In this document: one piece after another, positions 736 to 39,360 of the stretch
How positions within the stretch are numbered: the first letter of the stretch is position 1
Layout of the letters: each line of letters begins with the position of its first letter
Source of the DNA: an uncultured Bacilli bacterium
GTDB taxonomy: Bacteria > Bacillota_I > Bacilli_A > RF39 > UBA660
Assembly (NCBI GenBank): GCA_944350365.1
Contig: CALVOU010000002.1
Span: forward strand, 7,290-71,289
Reading direction: 5' to 3'
Length of the DNA stretch: 64,000 nucleotides
Notes under the pieces: model-generated
Database searches by the model: none
What the model saw: the letters and a program-made list of their open reading frames with translations, nothing else
What the model was told of the DNA's origin: nothing
Position numbers and translations under genes: made by a program

Positions 736-1434
736 ATGGAATTAATAAGAATAAAGGATGTTAGTAAGCAATACCGTAATGGTGTTACCGCAATATATGA
801 CCTAAATTTAAGAATAAAAAAAGGCGATTTTGTCTTTATTATTGGGGGTACTGGTAGTGGAAAAAGTACATTAATAAAAATGCTATACCGAGAAGAAAAA
901 CCCACTAAAGGAGAAATTATTGTCGGTGGTTTAAATGTTGCGAAATTAAGAAACGGAAGAGTATATAAACTAAGAAGAAAGCTTGGAATTGTATTCCAAG
1001 ATTATCGTCTTCTACCCAAATCGACTGTTTATGAAAATGTAGCCTTCGCTTTAGAAGTCATCGGTGCCAAAAAAGAAGAGATTAATCAAAAAGTATTAAG
1101 AGCTCTAGAATTAGTTGGCTTAAAAGGAAAGGTGAGAAATTATCCTGATCAATTATCTGGTGGTGAACAACAAAGAGTTGCTATAGCTAGAGCGATAGTC
1201 AATGAACCTAAAATACTACTATGCGATGAACCAACCGGAAACCTTGATCCAGAAATGAGTATGGAAATCATGAAAGTACTTGAAGAAATCAACCAAACCT
1301 TGGGAACGACCATTGTAATGGCTACTCACGATAAAGATATTGTTAATAAAATGAATCGACGAGTCGTTATCTTAAAAGAAGGTCGCCTTGTAAAAGATGT
1401 AGAGAAAGGAGGCTATGATGATGAAGCCATTTAG
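736..1434 (+). CDS. ftsE: Cell-division ABC transporter ATP-binding protein FtsE
   Basis: Walker A GGTGSGKST, signature LSGGEQQRVAIARA, Walker B ILLCDEPTGNLD. It is 232 aa and is followed by an overlapping ftsX. Confidence 0.9.
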   Translation: MELIRIKDVSKQYRNGVTAIYDLNLRIKKGDFVFIIGGTGSGKSTLIKMLYREEKPTKGEIIVGGLNVAKLRNGRVYKLRRKLGIVFQDYRLLPKSTVYENVAFALEVIGAKKEEINQKVLRALELVGLKGKVRNYPDQLSGGEQQRVAIARAIVNEPKILLCDEPTGNLDPEMSMEIMKVLEEINQTLGTTIVMATHDKDIVNKMNRRVVILKEGRLVKDVEKGGYDDEAI

Positions 1435-2320
1435 AATGTTTTTTAGAAGCATTAGAGATGCCTTTAAAAGTGTGTTTAGGAATTTTAGTCTATCTTTAGC
1501 CTCAATTTCTTGTATCGCGATTACTTTAGTTATTGTCGCAATTGCGATCATGGCTTCTCTCAATGTCAATAATTTCACTAAAGTAATTAAAGAAGATGTT
1601 ACGATTGTCGTATATGTAAATCCAGAGGTTGCTTCATCAGAAATAGGCACAATAAAAGCAAAAATCGAACAACTAGACAACATCGCAACAATTGAATATA
1701 AATCAAAAGACCAATTAAAAGAAGAGATGCAAGCTACTTCACCTGCTTTAAATGAAGCAATGAAAAATTGGGGGGATGATGAAAATCCCTTAAAGGATAC
1801 ATTCTTAGTTACAGTAAAAGATATTGAACAGATCGACGAAACTAGTGATAAGATCGAAGAAATGAAAGAAATTGATTTTACTGACTATGGAGAAAAAATG
1901 GTCAATAAGTTAATATCTACCTTTAAGATTGTTGAAAAAGTTGTCGTTGTGACAGTTATTGCGTTAATCATCGTTACGGTTTTCTTAATTATCAATACAA
2001 TTAAGTTGACAATTTTCTCAAGAAAAAGAGAAATTTCTATCATGAGATTAGTTGGTGCTAGTAATTTTACGATAAAGATGCCATTCGTTATCGAAGGTAT
2101 GGTCCTAGGTATGTTAGGTTCTATCATTCCTATCGTAGTTACCATGTATGGCTACTTTGTCCTATACAATCATTTTGACGGAGAACTATTTTCGCCATTA
2201 TTAAGAATGATTAGTCCAGAACCATTTATTTATATCGTATCATTAATCATTTTAGGAATAGGAATCGTTGTTGGTATGATTGGAAGTTATCGAGCAGTAA
2301 GAAAATATCTCAAAGTATAA
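1415..2320 (+). CDS. ftsX: Cell-division permease FtsX
   Basis: The 301-aa protein has an N-terminal TM segment, a periplasmic loop and three C-terminal TM segments. It overlaps ftsE; the start may be the third ATG at 1421. Confidence 0.85.
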   Translation: MMMKPFRMFFRSIRDAFKSVFRNFSLSLASISCIAITLVIVAIAIMASLNVNNFTKVIKEDVTIVVYVNPEVASSEIGTIKAKIEQLDNIATIEYKSKDQLKEEMQATSPALNEAMKNWGDDENPLKDTFLVTVKDIEQIDETSDKIEEMKEIDFTDYGEKMVNKLISTFKIVEKVVVVTVIALIIVTVFLIINTIKLTIFSRKREISIMRLVGASNFTIKMPFVIEGMVLGMLGSIIPIVVTMYGYFVLYNHFDGELFSPLLRMISPEPFIYIVSLIILGIGIVVGMIGSYRAVRKYLKV

Positions 2321-2350: not shown

Positions 2351-3565
2351 GTGAAGAAAAAAAAACGCTTTCTGTCAGGATTATCTATCTTGTTGATAGT
2401 AAGTCTAATAATCATGCCTTTTACTTCAGTAAAAGCTGAAACGCTACAAGACTATAAAAATCAGTTGGCTAAATATAAAAAAGAACAACAAGAAAATAAT
2501 GATAAAATCAATGAAACAGAAGATAAAATAGAAAGTTCTAATCAAGAAATTGAAAGCATTAAACAAGAATTACAAGATATGACAGAAGAAATAGAACAAA
2601 TGCGTCAAGATATCATTACCTATAATAACGAAATTAAAGAAAAAGAAATCGAAAGTAAAGAAATCATTGCTTATTATCAAATGGCCCAAGGCGAAAACTT
2701 ATATTTAGAATATGCGTTTGGGGCAGAAACCATTACGGATTTAATTTATAGAATGTCGGTTGTAGAACAATTAGTGGAATATAATGAAAACACAATTAAA
2801 GAACTAAATAACATGATTAAAGCTAATGAGCAAAGAGAAGTAGAGTTAAACCAAAAAGAAGAAGAAATGACGCAAAGACAAGAAGAATTAACTCAACAAG
2901 TTACCGATTTAACCGGAGTCAAAGCTTCACTTAATGAAAACTCTGTATCAGTAGAAAAGCAAATAAAAATATATGAGGAACAGATTCAAGCCTATGAAGA
3001 GATGGGGTGTGATGATAACGATGTCATCGGACGCGATTGTGCTACCACAAGTAGTGTTGCCGGATGGTATCGTCCTATTGAAAGTGGCTATGTAACAAGT
3101 GAGTTTGGCTATCGTTGGGGAAGTCTTCATCGAGCTGTCGATGTATCCAATAGAAATCCTTATAGTACTAAGATATATCCGGTGGCTAACGGAATAATTA
3201 CAGCTGTCTACGATGATGATTATGGAGCGTTAACCGTAGTAATTGAGCATAAAACTGCATCTGGTCAATATTATTCTTCACTATATACTCATATGAGTTC
3301 TTATGCCCCTTACGTCGATGAAGGGGTGGAAGTAACAGTTAACGACTACCTCGGGTATATGGGCGCAACTGGGTATGCCTATGGACCACATCTCCATTTA
3401 GAAATTGCCCCATGTCGTTTATTTAATCAATATGATAAAAATTGTAATACTTGGGACAAGTATGTAAGCTATGTTACCAGAATTTATAATAATGGAACCT
3501 TTACTGGACCAAGAGAGTTAATTTATTTCCCTAAACAGAATGTATTCTTCTCCGGTAGAAGATAA
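2351..3565 (+). CDS. M23 family metallopeptidase with N-terminal coiled coil (EnvC/PcsB-like FtsEX-associated hydrolase)
   Basis: A signal peptide is followed by a long K/E/Q-rich coiled coil and a C-terminal M23 domain (HRAVDV, GPHLHLE). A GTG start follows AAGGAG. A terminator hairpin GTCGAT/ATCGAC lies at about 3580-3610. Confidence 0.8.
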   Translation: MKKKKRFLSGLSILLIVSLIIMPFTSVKAETLQDYKNQLAKYKKEQQENNDKINETEDKIESSNQEIESIKQELQDMTEEIEQMRQDIITYNNEIKEKEIESKEIIAYYQMAQGENLYLEYAFGAETITDLIYRMSVVEQLVEYNENTIKELNNMIKANEQREVELNQKEEEMTQRQEELTQQVTDLTGVKASLNENSVSVEKQIKIYEEQIQAYEEMGCDDNDVIGRDCATTSSVAGWYRPIESGYVTSEFGYRWGSLHRAVDVSNRNPYSTKIYPVANGIITAVYDDDYGALTVVIEHKTASGQYYSSLYTHMSSYAPYVDEGVEVTVNDYLGYMGATGYAYGPHLHLEIAPCRLFNQYDKNCNTWDKYVSYVTRIYNNGTFTGPRELIYFPKQNVFFSGRR

Positions 3566-3730: not shown

Positions 3731-4420
3731 ATGAAAAAGAAAATATTAATTGGGGTTTTAGTTGTAATTATTATCGCTGTAGTTGCTATCTGCTATTTTG
3801 TTTTTAATGATGGAAAACAAGAACAAAAACTAAAAGATGAATTATTAGAAATCAGCAATTTGACTAATGTTACTCCAATTGACGTCGATGCAATTAATAA
3901 AAAACTAGAGGAAACAATAACAACTGGAGATTATGCTACTGTTGAAAAAGCGATGAAAAGTTATTTGAAAGATAGTTTTGACAATATGATTAGAATTGCT
4001 GAATTGCTAAACGATGATAGAATTACAGGAATACTTACTGCAGAAAACTACCAAGAAGACGGGCCAGACTTTGTGGAAACTAAAGCGTATATCACGTCTA
4101 CTATTCAAGAATTAGAAACTAGAAAAAATAGTTATCAAGAATATCTGACCGAAGAAAAAGCCATGTCTTATATCGAAAATAAAGGATTAGACGATTACTA
4201 CATTGATTTTTATAAAACTGAAATCGTCAAAGATATGGAAAGTGATGATACAACAGTGGCTGATTCCATTGATGGAGTAATTGAAATACTAAGAAATTCT
4301 GAGAAAGTAATTGATTTTCTGATTACCAATAAAGATAATTGGAAAATAGAAAATGACAGTGTTGTCTTTAGTAATGAAGACTTATCTAACCAATATATCA
4401 ATTTGATTTCACAGATATAA
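3731..4420 (+). CDS. Hypothetical membrane-anchored protein (single N-terminal TM)
   Basis: A 229-aa ORF with an N-terminal hydrophobic segment, its own putative promoter (TTGCTT-17-TAGAAT at about 3659-3687) and an RBS. No motif was recognised. Confidence 0.5.
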   Translation: MKKKILIGVLVVIIIAVVAICYFVFNDGKQEQKLKDELLEISNLTNVTPIDVDAINKKLEETITTGDYATVEKAMKSYLKDSFDNMIRIAELLNDDRITGILTAENYQEDGPDFVETKAYITSTIQELETRKNSYQEYLTEEKAMSYIENKGLDDYYIDFYKTEIVKDMESDDTTVADSIDGVIEILRNSEKVIDFLITNKDNWKIENDSVVFSNEDLSNQYINLISQI

Positions 4421-4440
4421 GAGCGTGAGCTCTTTTTTTG
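4420..4440 (+). terminator. Intrinsic terminator after the 3731 gene
   Basis: Hairpin AGAGC-gtga-GCTCT followed by TTTTTTT. It lies inside the ORF-track start (4425) of the next ORF, which argues for a downstream start at 4518. Confidence 0.5.
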
Positions 4441-4517
4441 TTTCTTCATTTACAGAAAATTTCTTTTCCAATGAAAAAAGAGCTGTTATAATAATAGGAA
4501 ATCAGGGAGAGTGTTGC

Positions 4518-6344
4518 ATGATGCTAAGGGGAAATATTGAAATTTATCAAGAAATAGATAAATGGCAAGCTAAGTACAAACTAACTCCAGAAGAAATAGA
4601 TGCTTTATATTTAAAAGATGGAGTCACTACTAAATCCTTAGAAAGGCAACTACAAGAATTAGAAAATAATTTAAAAGCATTAACCCCATCACGAGAAGAA
4701 AGATTGCTCCAAGCGATGTTTGGTGTAGAACCACGAGAAAATGAAGAAGAAAAACAGAAACTCCAAGAGGAAATCCAACATCTTAAACAAAAATTATCTG
4801 ATCCAGAGAGCTTTCTCGTTTATGCCACATCGCGAAAAAAACCTCGTTTAAGAACATATCCGACTAGTAATACAGAAGAAAAAGTATTTCAAGCGAATCT
4901 TTATTTAGCTAGAAAGCTAGCGATGATCTACTATTATAAAAGTGATAAAAACTATGAATACGATGATTTATTTCAAGAAGCAAGCGAAGCTCTACTACAA
5001 GCTGTTCACTACTATGTTCCTTTAGGAGAGGCAACTTTCAAAACCTATGCAACTAAATGTATAGAGAATCGCTTAAAAAGAGTAGTATTTCCTAAAAAGA
5101 AAAAGAGAAAACGATTAACAAGAAAAGAATACTACCAACAGGAATTAGATAACCTAGAACGATTATATTTATATATAGAAGCTAGATACATTCAAAAAGA
5201 TAATCTTTTTTTGGTAAACCATTATCCAGATGCTTGGCGAAAGGCAATTAGAAAATGGAATAGTGGAATTAAAATGTTTAATCGTGAAGTGCAAAATTTA
5301 GGTGAAGAAAATAGAGTACAGCCTAAAGTGAAAATCAGAAAAGAGAATTCTTATGAAGAATTTTTAGAAGAATTAATTTGCCTAGTAAAAGCCACTAATT
5401 TAGAAGAGCTTATTGATGAAGAAGATCGCCAAATGGTAAACTCATTACAAAACTTTAAGAAGATTAATTCAAAAGATAAGACGGTATTTACTATGTTAGA
5501 ATATATTCGCATTGCGCAAAAAAAATTAGAGGATATCCAATTGTATTTAGAAGTAGAAGCTTCTCTTCGTAATCAAGGACAAACGCCAACACTAGAATTA
5601 ATGGAAAAAGCTATGAATGAACGTGTAAAAAAGTTAAATTCTATGATTCGTTTTTACCAGAATGCACCGAGTTCCGCTAAGATAGAAGCCAATATATTGG
5701 ATAGAACATGGTACAGTATAGAATATTATGACCTATATAAAGTCGATATCTTCAATCCAGAAGATCGGGTAAAAGAATTTGAAGATATCCGAACTTTGAT
5801 AGTAGCGACACATAAAGAACCGCTTGATGAAGAAAGTATGATCAGAGAAGTTCAACAAGAGTTAATGGCAAGAAAACAGAAAGTATCTCAAGTAGTAGCT
5901 AGTGAGAACAAAAAGATATATGCGGAAAATAAGAAAAGACTACAATCTCACCAAGCCCTTCAAAGAAAAGGTAAGTATTATCGTAAATACACGTTAAAAG
6001 ATATCCAAGAAATAGAAAATAACATTACGATTCAGGAAAATAGCCACGAAGAATGGATCACTGAAGTTGAACAGAAAGAATCAACCACAACTCTCTCTGT
6101 AGAAGACGAAGCTATTCAGAATGTATTTTTAGAAGATTACTATAAAAGCTTAGAAGAACTTCCTGAACAAGAAAAAGAAATTTTAAAAAGATGGTACAAT
6201 TTTCTGGGAAAACATGAAATGAACGCCAAAGAGATTGCCGAAGAGTTAAATATTTCTCCTAGAATAGTTTATCAGAAAAAAGAACAGGCGTTAAAAAGAT
6301 TAGCTAAAGTAAAAAGATTAATAGCGTATCAAGAAAACGAATAG
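4518..6344 (+). CDS. Atypically large sigma-70-family RNA polymerase sigma factor (about 608 aa) with long insertions between conserved regions
   Basis: Region 2 is DDLFQEASEALLQAVHYYVPLGEATFKTYATKCIENRL. A region 3.0-like segment is LRNQGQTPTLELMEKAMNERVKKL. The region 4.2 HTH is LEELPEQEKEILKRWYNF...AKEIAEELNISPRIVYQKKEQALKRLAK. The RBS GGGAGAG lies 6 nt before ATG 4518. The K/E-rich low-complexity linkers total more than 300 aa. Confidence 0.7.
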   Translation: MMLRGNIEIYQEIDKWQAKYKLTPEEIDALYLKDGVTTKSLERQLQELENNLKALTPSREERLLQAMFGVEPRENEEEKQKLQEEIQHLKQKLSDPESFLVYATSRKKPRLRTYPTSNTEEKVFQANLYLARKLAMIYYYKSDKNYEYDDLFQEASEALLQAVHYYVPLGEATFKTYATKCIENRLKRVVFPKKKKRKRLTRKEYYQQELDNLERLYLYIEARYIQKDNLFLVNHYPDAWRKAIRKWNSGIKMFNREVQNLGEENRVQPKVKIRKENSYEEFLEELICLVKATNLEELIDEEDRQMVNSLQNFKKINSKDKTVFTMLEYIRIAQKKLEDIQLYLEVEASLRNQGQTPTLELMEKAMNERVKKLNSMIRFYQNAPSSAKIEANILDRTWYSIEYYDLYKVDIFNPEDRVKEFEDIRTLIVATHKEPLDEESMIREVQQELMARKQKVSQVVASENKKIYAENKKRLQSHQALQRKGKYYRKYTLKDIQEIENNITIQENSHEEWITEVEQKESTTTLSVEDEAIQNVFLEDYYKSLEELPEQEKEILKRWYNFLGKHEMNAKEIAEELNISPRIVYQKKEQALKRLAKVKRLIAYQENE

Positions 6345-6361
6345 AAAAAAGAGGTGAAAAC

Positions 6362-7429
6362 ATGAACTTTGATTGGCATATTTCTCATTATAACTATCAA
6401 GAAAAAGAAGACAATTTAAAAGCAAGTGCCTCTGGTGTTGTCAAAAGCGATAAGTTTTTTCCGATATTTTTAACTGAAGAAAAAACTAAGAAAGTATTTA
6501 AACCCCTATCAAAAACTAAACCCTTTTCCACTCCATACTTTGCGTATAGTGAAGTATTTTGGTCAACTGTAATTCACGATTATTTTGATCCACAAACCCC
6601 AGTCTATAAACTTGCGATTTGCGAAAATATAGAAACAGAATATAAAAACAAATACCATCATGGAACAGAAGTAGATTTATTAGAGAAAAAGGATCAGAAA
6701 ATAGTAAACTTATACGAAGTCTTCCTTAAACATCCTGATCCTAAAGTCAATATTAAAGACTACATTAATTTCTGTGAAAAGTTTTACGATTATCGCGCTA
6801 TCCTTGATTTAGAGTGGTTACAAAAAAATCCCCATTTAGGGAGGCAATTAGCTTATCAAACTCTTTTATCCATATTAAAATTAGATCAGAACTTTCACTA
6901 TGAAAATGTATTATGGTGGGAAAAAGATGATCAGATAACTTCTATCGTGCCATCTTTGGATCATGAGTTTTCAACGATGTTTCTTTACCTAGATCAATTG
7001 GATAAGAACCGTGATCGATTAAATAGAGGTTTATCTTCTTTAAGTGCCCCTAAAGAAAAAGAAGGGGATATTTTTGCACCCTTTTATTACGAAGCTTTCG
7101 CTGAATTAGCTAAAAATTTAGATTGGATTGTCACACATTATTCAGATACTACTATTCTGTTTTTAAAAAACTTAAAAAAGTGGCTTCATGACTTGAAACA
7201 GAATCCTTTTCAACTAGAAGATCATGGGTATCTAGTCCCATTTAATAGTTATAATTTCGAAGTAGGCCAGGCATTATATAAACAAAATAATCCCCAATTG
7301 GCAACTAATATAAAAGAAAATTTAACTCAATATAACCCAGATTTAAAAATGATAAATCAAGTAGTATATGATGAAGTTCTACTTACCAGTTGTACATTAG
7401 AACAAGAAATAAAAAAGCTAGTAAAATAA
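6362..7429 (+). CDS. Hypothetical 355-aa protein co-transcribed with the giant sigma factor
   Basis: It starts 18 bp after the sigma gene, with the RBS GAGGTG. It is soluble and has no recognisable family. A weak DH..FS segment (SLDHEFSTMF) was not assigned. Confidence 0.5.
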   Translation: MNFDWHISHYNYQEKEDNLKASASGVVKSDKFFPIFLTEEKTKKVFKPLSKTKPFSTPYFAYSEVFWSTVIHDYFDPQTPVYKLAICENIETEYKNKYHHGTEVDLLEKKDQKIVNLYEVFLKHPDPKVNIKDYINFCEKFYDYRAILDLEWLQKNPHLGRQLAYQTLLSILKLDQNFHYENVLWWEKDDQITSIVPSLDHEFSTMFLYLDQLDKNRDRLNRGLSSLSAPKEKEGDIFAPFYYEAFAELAKNLDWIVTHYSDTTILFLKNLKKWLHDLKQNPFQLEDHGYLVPFNSYNFEVGQALYKQNNPQLATNIKENLTQYNPDLKMINQVVYDEVLLTSCTLEQEIKKLVK

Positions 7430-7624
7430 TCTTTTTTCCATCAATATGAATAAAAAATAAGCGTTTCCCATATAAGTTTGGTGGAGAGTGGTCAAATGAA
7501 AATGGAAGATAGAAAAGGATACGAGGATATGGAATTTAATTTTCAGGGAAAACATCGGTTACAGAAAGTAATCAAATAAACATAACAAAATATGGGCAGA
7601 ATGGAATAAAGGAACCCCAAATAG

Positions 7625-7733
7625 AAAACACAAGAACCTATCGATATTGCGAATATGGTAGCTTTCTTATGTACAGAAGAAGCTAGATATTACTAGCCAA
7701 AATATTGGTGTTGATGGTGGATACATATTCTAA
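7625..7733 (+). pseudogene. Frameshifted remnant of the C-terminus of an SDR/FabG-type oxidoreductase
   Basis: Translation gives ...QEPIDIANMVAFLCTEEARYY* and, after a +1 shift, TSQNIGVDGGYIF*. This matches the classical SDR C-terminus (EIAnavaFLaSdeAsyITGQ.i.VDGG). No intact upstream catalytic domain exists. Confidence 0.5.
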
Positions 7734-39209: not shown

Positions 39210-39238
39210 TTGCTTTTTAGGAGGACCCATGCTATAAT
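39210..39238 (+). promoter_or_regulatory. S10-operon promoter TTGCTT-17-TATAAT
   Basis: Seen directly, about 120 nt upstream of rpsJ. Confidence 0.5.
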
Positions 39239-39360
39239 TTTAGGCGTGTGGCTGCTTAGATGTGTAAGGTTGCTGATACACCGGGTTAAGTTGTTAATTG
39301 GAATCAGGTTATTTACACGGAGCATGTCTATACTAGATATAGGCGAAGGGAGGATTCAAA
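39239..39360 (+). other. Long 5' leader of the S10 ribosomal-protein operon (potentially structured regulatory UTR)
   Basis: About 120 nt lie between the promoter and the rpsJ RBS. Complementary GTGTG/CACAC and TGTAAGG/..TTACACGG segments are present. The ORF-track ORFs here are judged non-coding. Confidence 0.35.

Follow-up and report, generated by a model that had tools for sequence, protein, structure and literature searches.

A stretch of 64,000 nucleotides (nt) from an uncultured Bacilli bacterium of the RF39 lineage (GenBank assembly GCA_944350365.1, contig CALVOU010000002.1, positions 7,290 to 71,289 of the forward strand; hereafter the window) carries a gene for a sigma-70-family protein of about 608 amino acids (aa), which we refer to as the giant sigma. 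We judge it probable that this protein is a functional alternative sigma factor, representing a rare and uncharacterised structural variant found in uncultured gut Bacilli of low guanine-plus-cytosine (GC) content. Sigma factors are usually pictured as compact adaptors of two to four domains, in which any extra mass sits at the termini, as in the extracytoplasmic function (ECF) factors, or before region 2, as in the non-conserved region (NCR) of sigma70. Several hundred folded residues placed between the readers of the -10 and -35 elements would test how much the holoenzyme tolerates at those junctions, and might show a new means by which a sigma factor can itself incorporate regulation or additional DNA contacts. 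These proteins occur in small-genome, uncultured gut Bacilli, in which only a small number of regulators are understood. In practice the gain is smaller and consists of a well-defined target family together with a second, unannotated family of apparently HipA/CtkA-like kinases.

The initial annotation of this locus, made from the DNA letters before any database search, had described an unusually large protein of the sigma-70 family with a recognisable region 2 and a region 4 helix-turn-helix (HTH), and profile hidden Markov models bear out both parts of that description. Pfam Sigma70_r2 matches aa 131-188 with 29.6 bits (cutoff 24) and Sigma70_r4 matches aa 545-596 with 33.8 bits (cutoff 24.1). 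With TIGR02937 the score is 48.4 (cutoff 42.9), in a single alignment spanning aa 121-597; this is a superfamily-level model, and a score above its cutoff is no proof of ECF membership. When PDB sequences were searched by profile, sigma factors matched both domains, the exceptions being two weak MatA/MatB matches on the HTH of sigma domain 4 (sigma4; likewise sigma2 for domain 2). Comparison with 16 canonical sigmas by hhalign gave a P of 5e-29 and was colinear over sigma2 and sigma4, and an AlphaFold2 model built from a 48-sequence family alignment has a mean predicted local distance difference test score (pLDDT) of 87.2 and a predicted template-modelling score (pTM) of 0.64. Sigma2 (regions 2.1-2.4) is present by both sequence and fold, sigma4 has its HTH, and we place the giant sigma in the sigma-70 superfamily but in no curated subgroup. 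None of the curated NCBIfam sigma subfamily models (SigE, SigK, RpoD, FliA, SigB/F/G) was matched at its cutoff and a literature search found no description of this sigma architecture, in agreement with the initial impression that it belonged to no described class. Along the gene, the domains are arranged as follows, in window coordinates.

4518..4865, + strand: N-terminal helical region, aa 1-116, with the signature IYQEID...LSxEEIxxLY and RxYPS; length varies at aa ~74
4866..5087, + strand: sigma domain 2 (regions 2.1-2.4), aa 117-190, with a DDLFQ..EAL core-binding-type motif and F-x-TYA-x-x-CIEN
5088..5117, + strand: polybasic tract FPKKKKRKRL, aa 191-200, straight after region 2.4
5118..5468, + strand: insert A, aa 201-317, predicted folded helices and one beta-hairpin, with N255 and LI(T/D)DEDR conserved; family length 99-149 aa
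5469..5702, + strand: segment putatively like region 3, aa 318-395, in which a long helix precedes another that opens with PT-x-EEIL
5703..6044, + strand: insert B, aa 396-509, predicted helical with one 45-residue helix; family length 68-605 aa, the main site of length variation
6045..6098, + strand: acidic segment, aa 510-527, abutting sigma4; 16-26 aa in the family
6099..6344, + strand: sigma domain 4 (regions 4.1-4.2, HTH), aa 528-608, and the stop codon

Regions 2 and 4 lie approximately 340 aa apart and about 115-130 aa stand ahead of region 2, the latter being the long N-terminal extension already recognised at the outset. Regions 2.3-2.4, which had initially been thought replaced by linkers, are in fact retained, with F174, Y177, A178, C181 and N184 invariant in all 48 members of the family alignment. 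The KKKKRKR stretch singled out in the initial annotation forms part of FPKKKKRKR (aa 191-199), the sole true compositional oddity of the protein; F191, P192, K193 and K194 are invariant in alignment A1, and the consensus in A2 is KKKKKK. SigE/K-like sigmas have a basic tail at the same point (LRKTKKKR in P0216, LRKTKKTEK in P0201). The motif TYA[SRT][RK]CIEN is common outside the giant-sigma family: a metagenome scan for it returned mostly short, unannotated, sigma2-only matches, which we took to be ordinary sigmas, and no new full-length loci.

The giant sigma belongs to a coherent family. An exhaustive profile search of 1.84 billion representatives returned 50 clusters at E<1e-30, some 45 of them full-length at 547-1104 aa, with the window protein towards the short end of the family; a word-indexed protein search with the 48-sequence profile gave just six known proteins, as low-complexity words saturate its candidates. 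In the 48-member alignment region 2 is detected in 47 and region 4 in 46, and the members are colinear, each residue of the window protein falling in a column filled by at least 80% of them. Domain lengths are stable (sigma2 82-86 aa, insert A 99-149, pre-sigma4 linker 16-26, sigma4 78-97) and length variation is concentrated at aa ~74 and aa ~416-442. The ratio of non-synonymous to synonymous substitution rates (dN/dS) of the gene is 0.15 against the copy in a 97%-identical metagenome-assembled genome (MAG) and 0.16 against a sister species with a 66%-identical protein, and is below 0.7 in all segments with enough substitutions for an estimate. Sigma2 and sigma4 are the best conserved parts, at 82% and 80% identity versus 56-66% in the inserts, and have the lowest dN/dS. 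Every genome match with an organism label is a MAG of uncultured 'Tenericutes' or Bacilli, UMGS592 being the one at 97%, and a pattern scan finds the gene in 5 species genomes only. On these comparisons we regard the gene as real, under purifying selection and conserved in a family. Its unusual length is all that hints at a pseudogene or at an artefact of assembly or fusion; the ORF (open reading frame) is intact in a 90%-identity cluster of 181 sequences from many assemblies and samples, the 48 diverged members are colinear, dN/dS is low and the AlphaFold2 model is confident along the whole chain, and we give an artefact, frameshift or pseudogene practically no credence, which upholds the initial annotation on this point.

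A second, compact family of approximately 300 aa (P0204, P0205, P0207, P0210, P0214) shares the N-terminal domain of the giant sigmas (LSxEEIxxIY...AEERLL.SIFG) and sigma4. In these relatives sigma2 is degenerate and undetected by Pfam r2, and the large inserts are absent. One compact-family locus (L077, 2542-3498) has uninformative neighbours, comprising small unknown proteins, GGGtGRT and MurL.

Where the initial annotation saw highly charged, low-complexity linkers of about 170 aa between the sigma domains, the two inter-domain stretches measure instead ~130 aa and ~130-140 aa and are modelled as helical, with pLDDT mostly above 85. Charged residues make up 35-36% of the inserts, compared with 35% of the whole protein and 38% of sigma4. 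The AlphaFold2 model is helical throughout and pLDDT falls below 50 at aa 1-5, 107-110 and 517-524 only, the last of these within the acidic segment, which has a net charge of -4 and is the least conserved in sequence. Conserved motifs are distributed along the stretches (N255, LI(T/D)DEDR, Y333, PT-x-EEIL, Y403, N471). As modelled, these stretches are folded, conserved helical domains rather than charged low-complexity linkers, and they evolve under purifying selection (dN/dS about 0.15).

Between the inserts, the region-3.0-like block of the initial annotation stands in one respect, in that aa ~330-380 align to regions 3.0/3.1 in the correct order, but the alignment is weak (hhalign P 0.018 and 0.05; HMMER conditional E 0.0014). 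Pfam r3 matches 1 of the 48 members, and a PDB profile search of the segment returned no sigma3, the best match being a TFE winged helix (E 0.074). The N-terminal IYQEID...LSxEEIxxLY signature similarly bears a weak resemblance to region 1.2 (hhalign P 0.013). We treat the region 3 and region 1.2 assignments as unproven leads and claim neither.

In a holoenzyme, sigma2 would dock on the beta-prime clamp helices and read the -10 element, perhaps in the manner of SigE/K (a CATA-type -10 would suit its motif), with F174 and Y177 in the roles of F427 and Y430 of sigma70. The acidic segment of 16-26 aa before sigma4 would run through the RNA exit channel, as region 3.2 and the ECF linker do, and sigma4 would sit on the beta flap and read the -35 element. 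The insertion domains would branch at the 2.4/3.0 and 3.1/3.2 junctions, which are solvent-exposed in known holoenzymes, and might stand out on the upstream side of the holoenzyme; there they could touch the spacer or DNA further upstream, serve as docking sites for regulators, or keep the factor auto-inhibited. We propose only tentatively, and with considerable doubt, that the giant sigmas (550-1100 aa, in uncultured gut Bacilli) constitute a distinct, undescribed sigma-70 group, in which folded domains at these two junctions and a family-specific N-terminal domain act as built-in regulatory or DNA-contacting modules that replace separate anti-sigmas or activators and impose an unusual promoter architecture.

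Several observations weigh against a working sigma factor. Region 2.3 lacks its tryptophan dyad, the equivalents of W433/W434 being K180/C181 in the PDB-search alignment; most base-contacting positions of sigma70 region 4.2 are unconserved even within the family, where V584 and K588 alone are near-invariant; a region-3 domain is not demonstrable (P 0.02-0.05); and no anti-sigma or other regulator gene is linked to the sigma gene. The variation among promoter-contacting residues in region 4.2 would suit a sigma-derived regulator that binds RNA polymerase or DNA and no longer initiates transcription, its inserts being the functional core (a scaffold, a sensor or a competitor for the core enzyme). 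Such a regulator would also accommodate the conservation of the inserts and N-terminal domain, which amount to ~70% of the protein, and the compact relatives that keep the N-terminal domain and sigma4 with a degenerate sigma2. It is nonetheless unlikely, given that sigma2 and sigma4 are the parts under strongest conservation, that F174, Y177, C181 and N184 are invariant in 48/48, as would follow from retained DNA melting and -10 reading, and that the length-conserved linker before sigma4 fits the constraint of a holoenzyme. A functional alternative sigma factor is the reading that we prefer.

The closest canonical relatives of the giant sigma are SigK/SigE-like. Among canonical sigmas, proteins of this kind score highest with the family profile; among specific NCBIfam models, those for SigK/SigE give sigma4 its best matches; and regions 2.3-2.4 carry the same type of motif (TYA-S/T-R/K-CIEN) followed by a polybasic stretch. 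Yet SigE and SigK are proteins of ~230-240 aa with a short region 3 and a short cleavable pro-sequence, whereas the giant sigma has ~340 aa of folded inserts and a conserved N-terminal domain of 116 aa, and it scores 24.8-36.4 bits with the SigE/SigK models (TIGR02835, TIGR02846, NF006158, NF004471) against cutoffs of 252-349. No sporulation context was seen. In the 2.3-2.4 motif and the basic tail, sigma2 does resemble SigE/SigK, but the protein is no member of either group.

Size might instead indicate the primary sigma of a reduced genome, strongly diverged from RpoD/SigA. The giant sigma is large like primary sigmas, and it is like those with an NCR, such as E. coli sigma70, in having a variable insertion (aa ~74) between the region-1.2-like motif (P 0.013, as above) and region 2.1, and in that folded insertions are tolerated at surface junctions; there is, moreover, no other sigma gene within the 64-kb window. 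However, RpoD/SigA-type NCBIfam models give 23-27 bits against cutoffs of 354-524, Pfam r1_2 and r3 do not match, and the nearest canonical relatives are SigK/SigE-like. The main insertions lie between sigma2 and sigma4, and region 1.1 is missing. The gene is also missing from the corresponding stretch of a related species' syntenic locus (L009) and was found in only those 5 species genomes. Finally, its own promoter and that of the S10 operon are of the canonical TGnTATAAT form, while the sigmaA residues for such sites appear to be absent here: by alignment and the known sigma70 roles, we take the equivalents of W433, Q437 and T440 to be K, N and K. A housekeeping role is accordingly most improbable. 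We know of no described sigma-70-family group with large insertions between sigma2 and sigma4.

ECF factors with fused extensions (ECF41/42-type) provide another comparison. As in the giant sigma, only sigma2 and sigma4 are clear, TIGR02937 is matched and no anti-sigma gene is linked, and regulation that an anti-sigma would otherwise exert could come from the extra fused domains. ECF factors as a group are compact and usually accompanied by a cognate anti-sigma, and their linkers between sigma2 and sigma4 are short, in contrast to the ~340 aa of folded sequence that separate these domains in the giant sigma, and the sigma2 of the latter is group-3-like. The protein does not group with ECF (group 4) factors on account of this spacing, and no anti-sigma-like neighbour occurs in six genomic contexts. 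The extensions of ECF factors are N- or C-terminal, not internal (PMC7671368, PMC3426412).

Sigma-70-family proteins several-fold the usual size are known from the MZA anti-phage system, in the form of MzaA (NF041931, model length 726), and the possibility arises that the giant sigma is a mobile-element, phage or defence sigma recently inserted at the locus. The position of the gene shifts even among close species and it is absent at the syntenic L009 locus. Against this, the extra mass of MzaA is N-terminal, its sigma module occupying model positions ~460-720, unlike the internal inserts described here; the giant sigma has no NF041931 match at E<=1; and PADLOC matched neither the sigma nor its neighbours. 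PHROGs gives generic sigma matches only, 2.9 million viral contigs contain no full-length relative, and a fold search of BFVD returned nothing at E<=1e-3. The surrounding genes are of the housekeeping kind; neither an integrase nor a transposase occurs among them. GC content matches that of the flanks. We consider such an origin very unlikely. One match from the viral set (L050, 7956-10735, IMG/VR UViG_2585428069_000004) was rejected as a family member, being a tandem or fused SigE-like and SigG-like ORF. It lies on a prophage-like clostridial contig where a 296-aa sigma is followed by a 632-aa ORF with seemingly two tandem sigma modules (SigE-like and SigF/G-like) and repeated HTH tails.

The GC content of the window is low, at ~29-37%. 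Around the giant sigma gene, its features are as follows; a gene for a DUF1287 protein comes after the 355-aa gene, and uvrB lies further along.

736-1434: ftsE, at the 5' end of the window
1415-2320: ftsX, at the 5' end of the window
2351-3565: M23/PcsB-like peptidase gene
3731-4420, + strand: gene for a 229-aa membrane-anchored protein, directly upstream of the sigma gene
4419..4441, + strand: terminator-like hairpin AAGAGC-GTGA-GCTCTT (hairpin 4419-4434) and T-tract, found by scan, ending the upstream 229-aa gene
4465..4492, + strand: sigmaA-type promoter-like site, TTTCCA, 16-nt spacer, TG-n-TATAAT (extended -10); 10/12 matches, TG present
4505..4511, + strand: ribosome-binding site (RBS) GGGAGAG, lying 6 nt ahead of ATG 4518 (9 nt ahead of ATG 4521)
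4518..6344, + strand: gene of the giant sigma, 608 aa (607 aa should translation start at ATG 4521)
6350..6356, + strand: RBS AGAGGTG of the 355-aa gene
6362..7429, + strand: gene for a 355-aa protein with a predicted HipA/CtkA-like kinase fold

The sigma ORF is intact over 4425..6344 when counted from a GTG, and the probable start is ATG 4518 or ATG 4521. The promoter falls within the GTG-started ORF and distant homologs start shortly before the IYQEID motif; hence the protein is taken to be 608 aa, or 607 if translation begins at ATG 4521, the sole start codon kept in the sister species (L052/L053). The upstream terminator, the gene's own RBS and the TATAAT element were all reported by the initial annotation, and all are present and conserved in the sister species, the sigma protein of which is only 66% identical. 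In L052/L053 the hairpin and T-tract are kept, with changes in the loop and at the stem top only, and GGAGAG of the RBS is retained; CTGnTATAAT is invariant across the window, L013, L052 and L053. From these signals, the sigma gene appears to be read from its own sigmaA-type extended -10 promoter. Elsewhere in the window, an S10-Clostridia ribosomal-protein leader (Rfam RF03136, 40.9 bits; 39249-39346, + strand) is preceded by TTGCTT-17-TGcTATAAT at 39210-39238, an example of the canonical sigmaA-type extended -10 promoters of this organism.

The 229-aa protein encoded upstream (3731-4420, + strand) is anchored in the membrane at its N terminus and matches no family; the sister species has a syntenic counterpart with 80% identity. 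It lacks a cytoplasmic N-terminal domain and is therefore unlikely to be an anti-sigma factor.

Downstream, the 355-aa ORF that the initial annotation placed close behind the sigma gene follows after a spacer of 17 nt and has its own RBS. No terminator was found in this spacer, for which reason the two genes are probably co-transcribed in the window. Sequence searches of Pfam, NCBIfam, PADLOC and PDB gave no match for the 355-aa protein, but its AlphaFold2 model is of high confidence (pLDDT 94.1, pTM 0.93) and Foldseek matches it to CtkA (E 9.7e-6) and to HipA/HipT (E 2e-4 to 1e-3) with a probability of 1.0; further matches are to PI4KII-alpha and Fam20C. The TM-scores of these structural matches are just 0.35-0.45. 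Conserved residues comprise K47, E64, D175-x3-H179-x-E-N182 and D200-H-E, while the invariant columns of the family are K47, E64, N177, H179, E181, N182, D200 and E202, a set that would fit an active kinase. The protein thus has a kinase-like fold with a catalytic loop and metal-binding Asp, and the model identifies it as a HipA/CtkA-like protein-kinase fold. It is like HipA, HipT and CtkA in fold and in having Lys, Glu, D-x3-H-x-E-N and D-H-E at kinase-like positions; it differs in sequence, with no match to Pfam HipA_C or related models, and in lacking a HipB- or HipS-like neighbour. No toxin-antitoxin partner (HTH antitoxin, HipB-like or HipS-like) adjoins its homologs at L007, L009/L010 or L011. 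The family occurs in gut Bacilli, has no Pfam or NCBIfam model, and carries the motifs FKPLSKTKP, DQNxHYEN and IDHEFS.

The initial annotation proposed the 355-aa protein as a dedicated partner, possibly an anti-sigma factor, and asked whether the downstream gene is conserved with the sigma gene. Comparison of loci does not support a dedicated partnership. The kinase has more than 219 homologs, and at L007, L009/L010 and L011 (four loci, three homologs) these occur with no sigma nearby; L009/L010 is syntenic with the window locus, running from ftsE, ftsX and the pcsB-like gene through other genes to the kinase, with no sigma. Conversely, sigma homologs lie amid unrelated, mostly housekeeping genes at L001/L002, L003, L005/L006, L015, L016 and L017, with no kinase in five other contexts, and the members of 1104 aa and 1063 aa are solitary between opposite-strand genes. 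All-against-all BLAST of the neighbours at 7-10 loci found no shared partner, the 229-aa and 239-aa neighbours being unrelated to one another.

A narrower proposal is that sigma and kinase form a functional pair within the genus, where the kinase phosphorylates the sigma or its targets, or is the first member of its regulon. The short, terminator-free spacer and separate RBS are compatible with such a pair, as is the order of 229-aa gene, sigma and kinase, which is kept in the sister species (sigma 66% identical) as well as in the window species and the 97%-identical MAG UMGS592, and nowhere else. In addition to the independent occurrence of the two genes at other loci, the kinase is frameshifted in UMGS592 while the sigma is intact, and its fold is unlike that of known anti-sigma kinases. 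The anti-sigma kinases SpoIIAB and RsbW are of the GHKL type. We find the functional pair improbable, and read the pairing from gene order as a local accident, or at most a genus-specific link. The frameshift in UMGS592 (L013, 9848-10922) is due to a single extra A at position 416, which splits the kinase gene into two ORFs, and is possibly an assembly error or a strain-level pseudogene.

Near the sigma gene in three related species there is a block consisting of NUDIX, a WYL-domain regulator, a 357-aa unknown and a Ham1-like gene (L001 10942-13812, L005 1596-4305, L016 10101-12837), and the sigma gene lies on differing sides of this block among them. The 357-aa neighbour was considered as a homolog of the 355-aa kinase and rejected (E 1.3). 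In the window, the 350-nt gap after the kinase gene contains a stretch (7470-7733, + strand) that resembles the 3' end of a decayed gene for a short-chain dehydrogenase; it translates as ...LDITSQNIGVDGGYIF*, with stops and frame breaks ahead of it, and is probably a pseudogene remnant.

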